A stretch of DNA of 32,000 nucleotides from Candidatus Hermodarchaeota archaeon. Its GTDB lineage: Archaea > Asgardarchaeota > Heimdallarchaeia > Hodarchaeales > Hodarchaeaceae. Both the position numbers and the translations under genes were made by a program. Shown one piece after another: positions 1 to 5,429 of this stretch. The stretch spans positions 9,139 to 41,138 of the forward strand of contig JBHLKY010000030.1 in NCBI GenBank assembly GCA_048886185.1, written 5' to 3'. Positions within the stretch are counted from its first letter, which is position 1, and every line of letters begins with the position of its first letter. Below the pieces are notes generated by a model that had not been told where the DNA came from, did no database searches, and saw only the letters and a list, made by a program, of their open reading frames with translations.

Positions 1-192
1 TGAATCAGGAATCGGAATGGAACCGTGTAAGCGATAATGTTGCTTTTCTGCAACAGTTCCTGCTCCCATGGAGAGAATTGTCATTCCGATAACACTTAAT
101 TTTACAGTGGTATCCTCTGATATTGGGGACAAATTCAAGAGTGGAAATGGTCCCATATCGGTCATTGTGGTTACAATGAGTCCAGAAATCAT
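1..192 (-). CDS. Longin-like protein, 5' part only (runs off the left edge; absent from the ORF track)
   Basis: Manual translation from ATG at 192 (AGGAG at 206-202, in-frame TAA just upstream) is open to base 1: MISGLIVTTMTDMGPFPLLNLSPISEDTTVKLSVIGMTILSMGAGTVAEKQHYRLHGSIPIPDS. The N-terminal strand followed by D-x-G-P-x-P resembles the start of longin/uDENN domains. It begins 20 nt after the stop of the 213..1169 gene. Confidence 0.6.
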   Translation of the reverse strand, partial: MISGLIVTTMTDMGPFPLLNLSPISEDTTVKLSVIGMTILSMGAGTVAEKQHYRLHGSIPIPDS

Positions 193-212: not shown

Positions 213-1169
213 CTAGTTCGCCTTATATTTCAGCAAAGATGTTATTTCAGTTGATATTTCAAGACATACTTGTTCAATAGTAGAATAAGATTCAGAATTT
301 AATCTGAATGTCGATTCTATTCCAATTAATACTAATTTTGTTCCAATATTAACAAGTTGAGTAATCATTAAAAAGTCTTCAATTCGAAGAACATTTGTTT
401 TTGCCTCGGGGGCTATATCAAAAGCCTCATATTGGTCTAGCATCTTGATAATTTGAGGTCCGACTTTCTCTTGCCAACTTTGGTTTTTTCCTATTGCTAA
501 AAGAATCTTATGGCTTGGAGACAATAAAAAAGCTCCAGCGATGCCATATGTCTTCATTTTCTCTTCTAGTCTTTCTTTAATTCGACGTTTATTTACCAGA
601 TCTAGATTTAGTTGTGCTTCCAAAGGTCTATCTTGGGAGAATTTACTAAAATCAGCAGCTTTATTTATTATCTGAGTAAAGATTAGGTTGGTTAATCGTT
701 GTTCATCAGGCCCTTTCAATGAAACAATATAAGATGGGATTTCATTAGGAAAGAATTGTTGAAAGTTTTTGATGACTGTGTCTTTTATTTTGTTTCTTTC
801 AACCTCACTAGTTATTAAATGTCCACGGTTTAGTAAAAGAACAACTCGAAAATTTTTGTTTACACTACTAATATCTGCAGTTATCCTTTGAAAATCCGAT
901 GAGATCTCATCTAAAAGTTGATAGGAGATATCGTGTATGTAAATAAGCGTGTTTATTTTCATTAAGATCTTTTCACGAATAGAAGGAAGTAAGCTAGTAA
1001 TATAAGTCTCTTCTTTCTTTGAATGAGAGGGATTTAACCAATCATAGTAAAAAACGTTCTGTAATATCTTAAGATTTGGTTCTGTCCGTCCTAACTTCAT
1101 CATTTGGCTAAAAAGTAGGTCTTTTCCAGAATGAGATAACCCGGATAATGCGATGAGGTTTTGACGCAA
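213..1169 (-). CDS. Degenerate (pseudo) Rag-like small GTPase with C-terminal roadblock-like domain
   Basis: G1 GLSHSGKD; no DxxG (G3); G4 position NRGH; strand LIYIHDIS aligns with LVFICDIA of the neighbouring Rag. The C-terminal ~125 aa (helix, GIAGAFLLSPSHKILLA, strands, helix) has a roadblock pattern. TTG start with GAGGAG at 1180-1175. Confidence 0.7.
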   Translation of the reverse strand: MRQNLIALSGLSHSGKDLLFSQMMKLGRTEPNLKILQNVFYYDWLNPSHSKKEETYITSLLPSIREKILMKINTLIYIHDISYQLLDEISSDFQRITADISSVNKNFRVVLLLNRGHLITSEVERNKIKDTVIKNFQQFFPNEIPSYIVSLKGPDEQRLTNLIFTQIINKAADFSKFSQDRPLEAQLNLDLVNKRRIKERLEEKMKTYGIAGAFLLSPSHKILLAIGKNQSWQEKVGPQIIKMLDQYEAFDIAPEAKTNVLRIEDFLMITQLVNIGTKLVLIGIESTFRLNSESYSTIEQVCLEISTEITSLLKYKAN

Positions 1170-1179
1170 TGTGACTCCT

Positions 1180-2184
1180 CTAAATTGGTGTTTTGAGCAT
1201 TGATTCTAGCTGCATGGACAGAAGTTTAACAGTTTCTTCAATCTCTGCTAAATTTCTAGTTTCTAACATAGATTTTTCATCACTGGAGACTAGAATTAGT
1301 AAATGATGTGGTTGTAACTTAGATTTGTACATCATTACTGCTCCTAGCCTTTTTAATTCAGATTTCGATCCAGTGATTAATTTTAGATCTTTTGATTTAT
1401 CCAAAAGAGTCAATAGTTGTTGGATTTCACTATCTTCTAACTCGGAGGCATTAATTCTGAAATTGGGATCCTCCAGCGAAATTAGAATGACTTCATCTAA
1501 TCGGTTCATAAATTTAAGAGTGTGAAGTACCTGTTGAATAGGTCGAAGGCGAAGCCTTTGTTTAATCGCTTCTAAGTCTTCCTCTTCTTTCATGCTTTCT
1601 ACTTCAGGAATAACTTCACTAGCTTCTGCTGTTATCCGTTTAAATGCTTCATGGATCGAATTATCATAAATGGATGTTTGCAAAAATGTTATGTTTTTGT
1701 TTGATGCCGCATCTTGAAACATTTCCATAAGAAATTCCATTCGTTCAGCCCGTTGAGTAAGATCGGGCATGAGATCAGTCTTGTGCAGCAGGACATAGAC
1801 AGCAGGTTGTACATCAGACATCTCTTCCAAACGGCTGACACCTTCAACAAAGGCCTTGAGTGAAGCTGGAAATTTATCTGGAGTAGCAATATCACAGATG
1901 AAAACTAAGACCGCAACATTACTGAAGATGAATGAACTCATACTACTCAAAAAACGTTTTAAAAAAACCTCTTGTCCTCCTAAATCCATAACAGTGATGG
2001 GCTCGTCTGCAACCTGCTCAATCTGTCGTTCATAATTTAACGTCGCTGCATAATCCTTGGTTTCCTCTGGTGCCTTACCTTCAAAAACAACGTCACGAAT
2101 GGATGTTTTTCCCGCCTGCGAGAGTCCTAGTAAGATTATCTTCCGTGCGCTCTGCGTTTTCAGCTGTTTCAAGTAATGACTCAT
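1180..2184 (-). CDS. Rag/Gtr-family small GTPase with C-terminal roadblock-like domain
   Basis: G1 GLSQAGKTS, G2 AATL, G3 DLGGQ, G4 HKTD and G5 TSIYD match the RagA/Gtr1-type signatures (HKxD, TSIxD). ~140 aa C-terminal extension. GAGGA upstream of the ATG. Confidence 0.9.
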   Translation of the reverse strand: MSHYLKQLKTQSARKIILLGLSQAGKTSIRDVVFEGKAPEETKDYAATLNYERQIEQVADEPITVMDLGGQEVFLKRFLSSMSSFIFSNVAVLVFICDIATPDKFPASLKAFVEGVSRLEEMSDVQPAVYVLLHKTDLMPDLTQRAERMEFLMEMFQDAASNKNITFLQTSIYDNSIHEAFKRITAEASEVIPEVESMKEEEDLEAIKQRLRLRPIQQVLHTLKFMNRLDEVILISLEDPNFRINASELEDSEIQQLLTLLDKSKDLKLITGSKSELKRLGAVMMYKSKLQPHHLLILVSSDEKSMLETRNLAEIEETVKLLSMQLESMLKTPI

Positions 2185-2267
2185 GGCATCGTCCTCTCGA
2201 GATCTAACACCTAGAATTATCTACACAAGTTCAAGTGTAAAGTTTTAAGATTCATCAAATAAATCTT

Positions 2268-2275
2268 TTTATATA
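2268..2275. promoter_or_regulatory. Candidate archaeal TATA box (TTTATATA) in the divergent intergenic region
   Basis: TTTATATA at 2268-2275 between divergent genes starting at 2184 and 2380. The background is AT-rich, so support is weak. Confidence 0.3.
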
Positions 2276-2379
2276 ATTCTGTGTTATTAAAGGTATTAAC
2301 CATTAAATAAAAAAAAACTATTGGTTCGCGTGAAAATAAGGCGTTTCTTTTTTGATTCTAATGTTGGAGCGTTAATCTC

Positions 2380-2727
2380 TTGCAACAACGCAAACCGCCC
2401 GATATTTTGTGTGAGATCACATGTAGATCTTTTCGATGCAGTGAAAAACTCTTGTCGATTACATATAGTCGTGGTGAGAAGAAGATAATGTGCAGAATGA
2501 TTGAAGGCGACGAATGTATCGGTTATAAATGTAAGTTTGCTGTTTGTTTTGTTCGGCCTTCAGCTTTGGATGTTTCAACAGGTTCTTGTTCTCAAAAGCT
2601 GAAACGTCAGAGACCTCGACACACTCAAAAAGCTAGTAGTAAAGATACTTTTGACGATCCCTTGAAATATAAAAATCTACTTGACAAAAAGTTAAGAAAA
2701 AATTTCAAGCTCAAAGATTACTATTAG
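2380..2727 (+). CDS. Small Cys-rich putative metal-binding protein with basic tail
   Basis: Eight Cys (CEITCRSFRC, CRMIEGDECIGYKCKFAVC, GSC) and a Lys/Arg-rich C-terminal half. TTG start with GGAG about 10 nt upstream. Confidence 0.7.
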   Translation: MQQRKPPDILCEITCRSFRCSEKLLSITYSRGEKKIMCRMIEGDECIGYKCKFAVCFVRPSALDVSTGSCSQKLKRQRPRHTQKASSKDTFDDPLKYKNLLDKKLRKNFKLKDYY

Positions 2728-2790: not shown

Positions 2791-4272
2791 TTAAACTAGC
2801 TTGTGTGTGAAATGGTAAAATCCACTCGTTTCATATAGAAATAGGACTATGATGACTATAGCAATCAAGCTGAGTCCAAAACAGAAAGTAAAAAGACCAA
2901 TAATTCCTTCTGGGCCAAGGCCAACAAAATATCCTCCTATAATAGCGCCCATAATATTTCCCATAGCCATGAGTGATTGGGTAAAGCCCATCTCACGTCC
3001 CCGTTGCCCTGATTTGGTTACATCACTAACTAAACCAAGAGCAGCTGAAATAAAACAAGAAGCGGAGAGACCGTAAATGATAATCATTAAGACAACAAAG
3101 ATGTGAGGGATCGGGAGTGGATTTTCAGGGATAAGATTCAAGGAAATTGTATCTGTTAATGAGAATGGATTTTTTATCAGATTAGACAATTCAGAAAGTT
3201 CCCATACTTGATTTCCATTTACGGATTCATAATCAAGAATGGATGCAAGTGTTATTAACAACATACTGGTACCAATAACTCCAATTACCAAGAAGGGTTT
3301 TCGTCCTACGTTATCAGAAAGTTTACCTAATACTGGTTGCATTATTCCCATTATACAAATCGCAAGAAAGCCAATTACCGCAATAGCGGGTCCTACCTCT
3401 ATAACGAGGTCGAATATAATAGTAGGTGCTACAAAAGTGCTTGCTCCTATGAGTGTTGTATAAGCTAACCATGCAATGGCGAATTTACGAAACTGTTTGT
3501 CTTGAAGACTTTCTAGCATAGTTTTAAACGGATTTATATCAATCTCTGAATCCGTTACAGTTTGAGTGAAATCTGTTAGCATTATATCAGCTTCATCATG
3601 TGAGACTATATCTGTATGGGGTTCAAAGAACCTAAACACATAAATTGAAGTAGCCAAGAACATTATGATTGCAAAGAAGAAGAATGAGTCCTCTTTTAAA
3701 ATCGCCCATGCGAATAAAGCAAATGGATTCCCAATAGCTCCTCCAGCAGCTTTTGCTAAGTAGAATTTCCCCATTGTTTCACCATGCTTTTCTTCTGGGG
3801 ATAAATCTGCAATTACCGCTAATATGGGTCCAGAGATCATCGCAGCAGCTAACCCTTTCAACCCGTTCGAAAGGACTAGAACTAGAAAACTAAATGGTAG
3901 AGTCGCATAGTAAGGATACATAATGGGAAAAATAATAAAGGAAATACCTGCTAATGCTGTTCCAATGATTAAAAATGGTCGTCGTCCAAAACGATCGCTA
4001 ATTAATCCGAAAAATGACGCAGTTGATAATGAAACGATGTAGTAACTGGCTACAATTATTGCGGTTTCGATACCCACCGTACTCGTTCCACTTTGTTCTC
4101 CTAATTCCCGGAGGTATAGGGGTAAACTAAATCCTGCAGAAGCAAATGCACATTCCGTCACAGCCACTGCAATATAAAGAATCATACTTTGCTTCTTTAG
4201 CAAAAAGGTGATGGGTTGGCCAATGAAATGCAAGGTTTCCTTTGTATATTTTGATATTGTAAGGCGTGGCAC
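2791..4272 (-). CDS. Major facilitator superfamily transporter
   Basis: About 12 hydrophobic segments. MFS motif A occurs twice (GLISDRFGRR, GKLSDNVGRK), with repeated ADLSPEEKHGETMG / SDVTKSGQRGREMG loops. Substrate unknown. Confidence 0.92.
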   Translation of the reverse strand: MPRLTISKYTKETLHFIGQPITFLLKKQSMILYIAVAVTECAFASAGFSLPLYLRELGEQSGTSTVGIETAIIVASYYIVSLSTASFFGLISDRFGRRPFLIIGTALAGISFIIFPIMYPYYATLPFSFLVLVLSNGLKGLAAAMISGPILAVIADLSPEEKHGETMGKFYLAKAAGGAIGNPFALFAWAILKEDSFFFFAIIMFLATSIYVFRFFEPHTDIVSHDEADIMLTDFTQTVTDSEIDINPFKTMLESLQDKQFRKFAIAWLAYTTLIGASTFVAPTIIFDLVIEVGPAIAVIGFLAICIMGIMQPVLGKLSDNVGRKPFLVIGVIGTSMLLITLASILDYESVNGNQVWELSELSNLIKNPFSLTDTISLNLIPENPLPIPHIFVVLMIIIYGLSASCFISAALGLVSDVTKSGQRGREMGFTQSLMAMGNIMGAIIGGYFVGLGPEGIIGLFTFCFGLSLIAIVIIVLFLYETSGFYHFTHKLV

Positions 4273-4526
4273 AGCTCTCTTTTCCTTTATGAGGTATTTG
4301 ATTCTGATTAGCCTATTAAGTCAATGTATTGGTTTCGTGAACTTAATATTATCTTCTTCTTGCTTGTTTTATTAAGTTTGCATTACACTTCATAATACAG
4401 TTAAATTTTATCAAAATAAGGAAAATTTAAAATTCTTTGTACCTTAAAGAAAGCAAACGATCTTATTATCCAAATTTTCGCCAAAAAAGTATTAATCATG
4501 TTAATTTTCAAATTGAGGAGTTAAAC

Positions 4527-5429
4527 ATGAAAATTTCACTTGTTGGACTTAGTGGTTGCGGTAAAACATCAATCTATTTCACTACATTGGGTGGGATGGC
4601 TCCTATGGAGACCAGTGATTTCGGGCCGACCATTATGTATGAGGTGAAGTCCCATAATTACTTGGGTCTTCAAATATCCCTGTGGGACTTCGGAGGGCAA
4701 GAAAAATATAGGCAATCGTACCTCGAGACACCTAAACTTCTCGCTAACACCACGGTGTTGGTTTTAGTCCTTGATCTCCATCATCCTGAGGATTTTAAGA
4801 AAGCAGACGATTACTTTAGGCAGGTTTATTCCGCTATTAAAGAAAATGGAGGAGATCCTCGTTTAATAATTTTCTTTCATAAATATGATACAGAGCAATA
4901 TCTTAAGGAACAGCTTGAAGAGAATCTCGACAAAGCTAGAGAATTACCATTTGTCCGAGAACTTAATCCTGAATCCTTTGTTACATCTATTTATAGACAA
5001 GAGGAATTAAGTGAGGTTTTTCGTCAAATCTTGATTTCAGACTTTGATAAATTAAAAAATAGCGTTGAACACGCTCAAAACCAACTCATGAAGCTGAATT
5101 CAAAGATCATTGTGAGTGATGTGAATGGAAATGTTATTACTCATAGTATCAAGGGTTTTTCAACGGGAATCCAGCTTCGTGAAGATTTGCGTGATTATAT
5201 TCTTTCCTGTAATGTATTACGTGAAAATTTCCTCACAAGTGATTCAGCTTCTTTTTCTGCCATTTCTGATTCAAAGACATTAGAATTGCATATTTTTAAT
5301 TTTGTTCTAGCTGTACTCATTATGGTAGATAAAGGGGTAAAAGTTGATCCCCCTGAAGATATCGAAGCTTTGCTAAAAGATATGAAAGTGTTTGCAGAAT
5401 TAATCATTGAAGCTAGTAGAGAAGATTAA
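4527..5429 (+). CDS. Second Rag/Gtr-family small GTPase with C-terminal roadblock-like domain
   Basis: G1 GLSGCGKTS, G2 GPTI, G3 WDFGGQ, G4 HKYD, G5 TSIY, plus C-terminal IIVSDVNGNVI roadblock-like strands. Start moved from the track's 4437 to ATG 4527, which has GAGGAG at 4515-4520 and lies directly before the P-loop strand. Confidence 0.9.
   Translation: MKISLVGLSGCGKTSIYFTTLGGMAPMETSDFGPTIMYEVKSHNYLGLQISLWDFGGQEKYRQSYLETPKLLANTTVLVLVLDLHHPEDFKKADDYFRQVYSAIKENGGDPRLIIFFHKYDTEQYLKEQLEENLDKARELPFVRELNPESFVTSIYRQEELSEVFRQILISDFDKLKNSVEHAQNQLMKLNSKIIVSDVNGNVITHSIKGFSTGIQLREDLRDYILSCNVLRENFLTSDSASFSAISDSKTLELHIFNFVLAVLIMVDKGVKVDPPEDIEALLKDMKVFAELIIEASRED

Follow-up and report, generated by a model that had tools for sequence, protein, structure and literature searches.

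The window analysed here is a stretch of 32,000 nucleotides (nt) from Candidatus Hermodarchaeota archaeon, a member of the Hodarchaeales (assembly GCA_048886185.1, contig JBHLKY010000030.1, positions 9,139-41,138 of the forward strand). Near its start lie two genes, here called A and B, the first of which encodes a Rag/Gtr-type GTPase and the second a protein of the same architecture with altered GTPase motifs. They are followed by gene C, a longin gene that lies only partly in the window, and by gene D, a second Rag-family GTPase gene beyond the window start (Table 1). A preliminary description of A and B had regarded them as an active GTPase coupled in translation to a dead paralogue, the two forming an asymmetric Rag heterodimer. 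We compared the locus across its GTDB genus, represented by 21 species-level genomes, checked the gene order in 19 other genomes and surveyed 83 genomes of the class Heimdallarchaeia.

Gene A scores 123.8 bits against the Pfam family Gtr1_RagA (PF04670), for which the cut-off is 22 bits. Its translation contains G1 as GLSQAGKT (residues 20-27), G2 as Thr48 within ATLNY, G3 as DLGGQ (67-71), G4 as HKTD (134-137) and G5 as TSIYD (170-174), an intact series that includes the Rag-type forms of G4 (HKxD) and G5 (TSI[WY]D). The profile of its orthologues matched Gtr1 with an E-value of 1e-18 and RagA with 2e-14, and every A motif was aligned with its counterpart in Gtr1. Judged by these motifs and matches, A is a genuine GTPase of the Gtr1/RagA family. 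The orthologues in the other compared genomes are 77-90% identical to it, and the ratio of nonsynonymous to synonymous substitution rates (dN/dS), computed for eight pairs, was 0.02-0.04 in seven of them and 0.25 in a nearly identical pair with a dS of only 0.06; between many of the compared genomes synonymous sites are saturated (dS above 1).

In gene B an intact Rag-type G1-G5 series was not found, the corresponding positions reading GKD, DWLN, NRGH and SLKG. Column counts over 83 family members showed that G10, S12, H13, S14, G15 and K16 of the P-loop are invariant and that position 17 is D in 79 members, N in three and E in one. N114, R115 and H117 as well as S150-L151-K152-G153 are likewise invariant. 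A DxxG motif is present nowhere in B. Since the run YIHDIS falls on strand beta4 in a profile alignment to RagA, the true G3 position of B is D43-W-L-N46, which is followed by an insert. The segment between P-loop and G3, which covers switch I and beta2, has some 14 residues fewer than its counterpart in A, and we therefore take switch I and beta2 to be absent from B. Against PF04670 the protein is borderline, with 21.6 bits on its own and 22.1 bits when neighbouring residues of the frame are included. B thus classifies as a pseudo-GTPase: the fold is kept, while G2/beta2, the glycine of DxxG and the aspartate of NKxD are lost across all 83 members.

The AlphaFold2 model of B, built from the family alignment, has a mean predicted local distance difference test (pLDDT) value of 79.6 and consists of a five-stranded G-like domain without beta2 and a tail of the order alpha-beta-beta-alpha-beta-beta-beta-alpha (residues 191-312). 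In a Foldseek search of the PDB the best 44 matches were RagA, RagC, Gtr1, Gtr2 and Lokiarchaeal Rag-like chains, all over the full length and with E-values down to 2e-12; next came MglB roadblock dimers, which matched the tail (template modelling score TMt 0.62-0.65). Searched on their own, the tails of A and B gave no Pfam family; a profile comparison with hhalign aligned the two tails with each other. According to the model, B keeps the Rag architecture of a G-like domain followed by a roadblock tail.

B was found in 20 of the 21 genomes of the genus, in all 20 with an intact frame; in the one genome without it, A is truncated at the end of a contig. A dN/dS of 0.07-0.2 together with this presence indicates that B is under purifying selection and functional rather than decaying. 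The public gene call (P0004) has 296 amino acids (aa), begins at Met23 and leaves out the P-loop. Because invariant positions lie within the 22 residues ahead of Met23, the 318-aa frame is the translated one, and the TTG or GTG codon 22 codons upstream of Met23, kept as a start in all orthologues, is on this alignment the better gene model.

B probably originated from its neighbour. Searched against 1.84 billion representative proteins, the B profile returned its own cluster with fragments of it, one A-type protein and one fragment of a eukaryote-like RagA. The A-type protein (E 9e-4) was the sole full-length match outside the family, and within its own genome the profile matched only B and A. 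Profile-profile comparison aligned B with A over 253 columns including the tail (E 4.6e-5), as against an E-value of 0.07 with D. Since A is the only detectable relative and a better profile match than D, the simplest account, and a probable one, is that B arose as a tandem copy of A and diverged fast.

These results bear out most of what the preliminary description had read from the two genes, namely the five G motifs of A, the GKD and NRGH of B with no DxxG between them, and a second protein that keeps the fold; the profile alignment refines this by placing G3 at D43-W-L-N46. The term dead paralogue holds for the switch motifs. It goes too far for the site as a whole, since the invariance of GxxxxGK, N-R-x-H and S-L-K-G suggests that binding of a nucleotide or phosphate may have been retained.

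The four-gene cassette

On the minus strand the A-B junction reads TAG AGGAG TCACA TTG, which leaves a gap of 10 nt between the genes. The last base of the A stop codon (position 1180) is also the first base of GAGGAG, the overlap that had been noted before. Counting that of the window, 18 junctions could be read, and 15 of them have a spacer of 10 nt with a TAGAGG core; the spacer measures 13 nt in one of the remaining genomes and about 120 nt in two (G016 and G001). Because the junction recurs in this form even though dS exceeds 1 between many of the genomes, its conservation, as judged from the aligned sequences, is more than chance, and the spacing suggests that translation of B is coupled to that of A.

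The survey of gene neighbourhoods also found the adjacency of A and B with its tight spacing kept across the genus. The conserved unit is not the A-B pair alone, to which the preliminary description was confined; it comprises the four co-oriented genes A-B-C-D, and D thereby enters as an alternative partner for A. This order was held in 19 of the 19 other genomes as far as their contigs extend. C lies directly downstream of B in all compared genomes, and A and D are adjacent in none of the 20, B and C always lying between them. The B-C spacer ranges from 18 to 47 nt (83 nt in one genome), while the C-D spacer is 14-19 nt in 14 of 17 measured junctions and 34-35 nt in two, the one in G006 being unreadable. 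In the source contig the three spacers from A to D are 10, 20 and 14 nt, with AAAGGAG ahead of C. In the survey of 83 class genomes, neither B nor full-length C turned up outside this genus. An apparent fusion of B and C at one locus (L033) was dismissed, a stop codon being present between them.

The AlphaFold2 model of C (pLDDT 79.7) shows a longin domain followed by a gelsolin-like domain. A GP motif lies in the first hairpin (beta1-beta2 loop), and R85 and R91 are invariant. Pfam matched no family to C, nor to the protein labelled E. Foldseek matches of C include a Lokiarchaeal longin (8yqg, E 9e-6), chains of GATOR1 complexes (9o5d, 7t3b), a chain of the FLCN-FNIP2 complex (6ulg) and the Thorarchaeal ProGel (7c2f). 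The gelsolin-like domain of Sec23 is also among its structural matches. Sec23 is the GTPase-activating protein (GAP) for Sar1. C has the GP motif and the arginines that mark GAP longins of the FLCN/NPRL2 type, and is probably a GAP of A and/or D. The C orthologue of G006 (L050 / L089, G006:C98) carries a single in-frame TAA, which may be a sequencing error, the mark of a pseudogene or a case of recoding.

Gene D encodes an intact Rag-family GTPase, the family profile of which matches RagA with an E-value of 1.6e-18; its dN/dS is 0.02-0.11, and a close paralogue exists elsewhere in the genome (G000:C19:91392-92318, 260 bits to the D profile). Both A and D are slightly nearer to RagA/Gtr1 than to RagC/Gtr2. 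The same genome also holds a gene for a 301-aa Rag-like GTPase convergent with that for a 344-aa protein having a C-like longin domain (48 bits; G000:C28:5783-7747), which by gene content is a second Rag-longin linkage.

Table 1. Features of the cassette and its flanks. Plain coordinates are window positions; those beginning with G000:C30 are positions on the source contig.
Feature	Position	Strand	Description	Basis
Gene A	1180..2184	-	Active Rag/Gtr-family GTPase, 334 aa	PF04670, G motifs, orthologue profile
Gene A, domains		-	G domain, residues ~1-189; roadblock-type C-terminal domain, ~190-334
A-B junction	1170..1182	-	A stop TAG 1182-1180, GAGGAG 1180-1175, 5-nt spacer, B start TTG 1169-1167	Sequence
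Gene B	213..1169	-	Rag-shaped pseudo-GTPase, 318 aa, TTG start	Motifs, AlphaFold2 model, Foldseek, dN/dS
Gene B, domains		-	G-like domain without beta2/switch I, residues 1-185; roadblock, 186-318
B P-loop	1119..1142	-	GLSHSGKD, residues 10-17	Column counts (83 members), alignment
B G4 equivalent	819..830	-	NRGH, residues 114-117; N, R, H invariant	Aligned with HKMD of RagA
Gene C	1..192 (first 64 codons); whole gene G000:C30:8536-9330	-	264 aa	AlphaFold2 model, Foldseek
Gene D	G000:C30:7592-8521 (L013:7592-8521), outside the window	-	Another intact GTPase of the Rag family, roadblock tail, 309 aa	PF04670, 118.9 bits
Protein gene after D	G000:C30:6922-7473	-	183 aa, no Pfam match
Region upstream of A	2185..2379	-	AT-rich, common to A and a divergent small Cys-rich gene	Sequence only

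The AT-rich region upstream of A is probably the promoter region of the cassette. The divergent gene on its far side (2380-2727, plus strand) encodes a 115-aa Cys-rich protein that is kept in most compared genomes (51-70% identity) and may be a candidate regulator of the cassette. At the other end, a gap of 78-152 nt separates D from the gene for the 183-aa protein in 13 of the 14 genomes measured; with 36-61% identity this protein is the fastest-evolving of the set, and next after its gene comes a gene for an M50-like membrane peptidase. A further GTPase of the Gtr1/RagA family with a C-terminal domain is encoded at 4437-5429 on the plus strand (probable start 4527; PF04670 74 bits; motifs GLSGCGKT, DFGGQ, HKYD and TSIY). 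It lies divergent from the cassette, past a transporter gene of the major facilitator superfamily (2791-4272, minus strand).

Pairing of the Rag-type proteins

Related cassettes were found in two other families. The cassette of G023, from a sister family within the same order (L105/L107, G023:C631:1158-5502), opens with two Rag-like genes, both fully active and with an overlap of 10 nt, and a C-like longin gene follows. The first product has 362 aa with a long low-complexity insert, the second is D-like (308 aa, 188 bits), and a pseudo-GTPase is absent from this cassette. Another Heimdallarchaeial family, of which four genomes were checked (G031, G082, G079 and G037; L100-L103), has a parallel four-gene cassette that begins with an Arf/Sar-like G-roadblock protein (WDLGGH, NKSD). 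Its second gene is a half-degenerate sister copy, in which GKT and NKRD are kept and DLGK replaces DxxG, the third is a C-like longin matched over both domains (75-78 bits) and the fourth a 175-aa Rab-like GTPase. We rejected the idea that B is an orthologue of the degenerate second gene in this parallel cassette (family f4), hhalign giving no link (E 0.07). The recurring theme is two G-roadblock genes with a GP-longin gene, in which the state of the second partner runs from active through to fully degenerate. This theme supports a view of adjacent G-roadblock genes as partners, and it equally keeps alive a pairing of A with D.

The complex was predicted in a single three-chain job in which the roadblock tails of A, D and B competed and B was scored. 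B obtained an interaction prediction score from aligned errors (ipSAE) of 0.46 (0.46, 0.46 and 0.62 in the individual runs), which was rated as weak support. The runs agreed in at least 95% of contacts and the pLDDT of the partner was at least 81. When B was swapped for unrelated proteins the score was 0.01 and 0.00, and when A was swapped with B and D kept it was 0.11. The calibration mark is passed by 58 of 80 solved complexes and by 2 of 110 mismatched pairs. Of those that pass, only seven solved complexes, but both mismatches, lie at or below 0.60. In the model, then, the placement of B depends on A and not on D. Evolutionary rates are compatible with this without proving it: the tail of A changes at about five times the rate of the nearly static G domain (Kimura distance 0.386 vs 0.075), as might be expected if the tail tracked the fast-evolving B, and the two domains of D evolve alike (0.229 vs 0.218).

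The reading we favour, and regard as evenly balanced between right and wrong, is that A and B form a Rag-type heterodimer with a single switching subunit, inside a regulatory cassette of Rag-like and longin proteins. A would be a working switch of the Rag/Gtr type. B, derived from an A-like copy, would have kept the phosphate-binding loop and the roadblock tail; having lost switch I/beta2, DxxG and the guanine-specifying aspartate, it would be unable to act as a GTP/GDP switch itself. The two would be joined through their roadblock tails, like RagA:RagC or Gtr1:Gtr2, and the 10-nt junction with the weak TTG start would let B be produced in step with A. C would serve as the regulator (GAP) of A and/or D. 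Of the pair foreseen in the preliminary description, the combination of an active with a pseudo-GTPase stands, and its joining into a heterodimer is weakly supported by the prediction (0.46 vs 0.11).

Several points weigh against the A:B dimer. The three-chain job is unlike the calibration set and its score is a weak pass, to which model memory may have added, the Rag family having solved heterodimers; moreover, the score speaks for B choosing A over D and not for A choosing B over D. The two genomes with a spacer of about 120 nt (G016 and G001) depart from the tight A-B junction. In the sister family the cassette is active:active, and such a pair may be the ancestral state. Covariation of tail rates, examined by a mirror-tree approach, gave a naive partial correlation of 0.75 for the tails of A and B and of 0.19 for those of D and B. 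With the fast-evolving controls E and C and a distance correction the signal proved unspecific (0.31 vs 0.43), and we did not use it as evidence.

A bolder form of the same reading, which we hold only tentatively and rather doubt, takes B to be permanently liganded and non-switching. The invariant P-loop lysine, the aspartate that replaces Ser/Thr and the N-R-x-H found where N-K-x-D is usual may then accommodate a non-guanine nucleotide, the dimer would be a single-switch device with C as the GAP for A, and the whole would represent a minimal Rag-plus-longin-GAP module that predates TOR (target of rapamycin) signalling.

It is unlikely, we think, that the real Rag-type heterodimer is A:D, two active subunits, with B in a side role, be it as decoy, as scaffold or as an adaptor of the Ragulator kind sitting on the tail of A or on C. 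The intact D in the same cassette speaks for it, as do the overlapping active genes of the sister family, Rag-like and D-like, with their longin and without a pseudo-GTPase, and a published operonic pair of two Rag-like GTPases in another Asgard archaeon, strain MK-D1 (PMC10933270). Nevertheless, B and C separate A from D in every genome compared, the predicted docking of B needs the tail of A, the very surface D would use, and D may pair with itself or with its close paralogue.

We consider it quite unlikely that the three Rag-like proteins join in a higher-order hetero-oligomer, for example (A:B)2 or A:B on D:D, with C on the G domains. Co-production of the proteins is suggested by the four co-oriented genes and their short spacers, a Lokiarchaeal RagA-like GTPase was crystallised as a homotetramer (PDB title 8yl2), and eukaryotic roadblock dimers are established to stack on Rag tails (PDB 6u62 is among the Foldseek matches of B). 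Against such an assembly stands the score of only 0.11 that B reached with D once the tail of A had been replaced.

There is a slim chance that B works through its roadblock tail alone, as an MglB-like GAP or guanine nucleotide exchange factor of A or D, the G-like domain being a structural remnant. The tail does resemble MglB, and roadblock dimers are established GAPs for MglA; however, the G-like domain of B is more conserved than its tail (Kimura distance 0.50 vs 0.74), and an invariant P-loop, NRxH and SLKG are unexpected for a remnant. The shortened public gene call without P-loop and the Pfam score slightly below the cut-off might suggest that B is a pseudogene in decay or an artefact of annotation; this we count as refuted by the frame intact in 20 genomes, the low dN/dS, the invariant N-terminal positions and the conserved TTG/GTG start.

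Comparison with known systems

Rag GTPases and longin GAPs (GATOR1, folliculin) make up the nutrient switch of eukaryotic TORC1 (target of rapamycin complex 1). The cassette resembles the eukaryotic Rag/Gtr heterodimers (RagA/B:RagC/D, Gtr1:Gtr2) in the combination of a G domain with a C-terminal roadblock domain, in the HKxD and TSI[WY]D motifs of A, in the predicted pairing of two paralogues through their tails, and in its neighbour gene C, the eukaryotic proteins being regulated by longin proteins of the FLCN/NPRL2 type. In contrast to B, which lacks switch I, DxxG and the NKxD aspartate, both eukaryotic subunits are working GTPases, and the signal consists in their opposite nucleotide states. 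Furthermore, B is probably a lineage-specific copy of A, the context here includes no Ragulator, TOR or lysosome, and since A and D are both slightly nearer to RagA/Gtr1 the pair does not represent a RagA/RagC split.

Rag/Gtr GTPases are well documented in Asgard archaea, and PDB titles record crystals of Lokiarchaeal Rag-like proteins in monomeric and in homotetrameric form. Tran et al. 2024 (PMC10933270) described one operonic Rag-like pair in 'Ca. Prometheoarchaeum syntrophicum' MK-D1 for which AlphaFold2 predicted a heterodimer through the roadblock domains; the GTPase genes of MK-D1 generally share no operon with roadblock or longin genes. Like that pair, A and B are adjacent, co-oriented Asgard GTPase-roadblock genes, here 10 nt apart, with a predicted roadblock heterodimer that is weak in our case. 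Unlike B, both members of the MK-D1 pair are described as Rag-like GTPases, and a degenerate partner, an operon longin or a fourth gene is not mentioned in that paper. A sequence relation between B and the MK-D1 pair did not emerge, the search with the B profile returning its own family only. In the literature we found no description of a pseudo-GTPase partner or of the A-B-C-D cassette. The arrangement had been put forward as an asymmetric form of Rag not recognised as described; by our literature searches this holds for the pseudo-GTPase partner and not for the operonic Rag-like pair as such.

C has its closest counterparts in the GP-motif longins of the 'FLCN/SMCR8 type' reported from Asgard archaea in a 2025 survey in Traffic (PMC12290439), with which it has in common the GP motif, R85/R91 and the matches to GATOR1 and FLCN-FNIP2 chains. 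It differs from them in its place between Rag-like GTPase genes, the passages of the survey on these longins giving no gene context, and in its additional gelsolin-like C-terminal domain. The same passages leave open which GTPases are the clients of the FLCN-like longins, and the conserved linkage in the cassette names candidates for them. It has been proposed that no archaea are closer to eukaryotes than the Hodarchaeales (Eme et al. 2023, cited in PMC12290439), and for the eukaryotic Rag switch with its regulator the cassette provides an archaeal counterpart that can be tested. If the rather doubtful view of a liganded, non-switching B were true, a Rag-plus-longin-GAP module would have existed in these archaeal relatives before TOR signalling. 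All four proteins are small and look soluble, which makes binding, nucleotide and GAP assays feasible.

Compared with the MglA/MglB system, the cassette has no separate roadblock protein: the roadblock of B is fused to a G-like domain, and A and D are of the Rag type and not of the MglA type.

Pseudo-GTPases with active relatives are familiar from the 'GMS' regulators of 'GKS' GTPases among the immunity-related GTPases (IRG), from non-hydrolysing septins and from alpha-tubulin in the tubulin dimer. These cases belong to unrelated lineages, folds or subfamilies, and none of them is a Rag-type G-roadblock protein. In each, as we propose for B, a paralogue with a non-canonical nucleotide site is kept alongside an active one, as its obligate partner or its regulator. 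A Rag-type pair with a conserved pseudo-GTPase would add an independent case of a duplicated dimer partner retained for a non-switch role, and for this transition the cassettes form a natural series, with both partners active in the sister family, one half-degenerate in the other Heimdallarchaeial family and one fully degenerate here.

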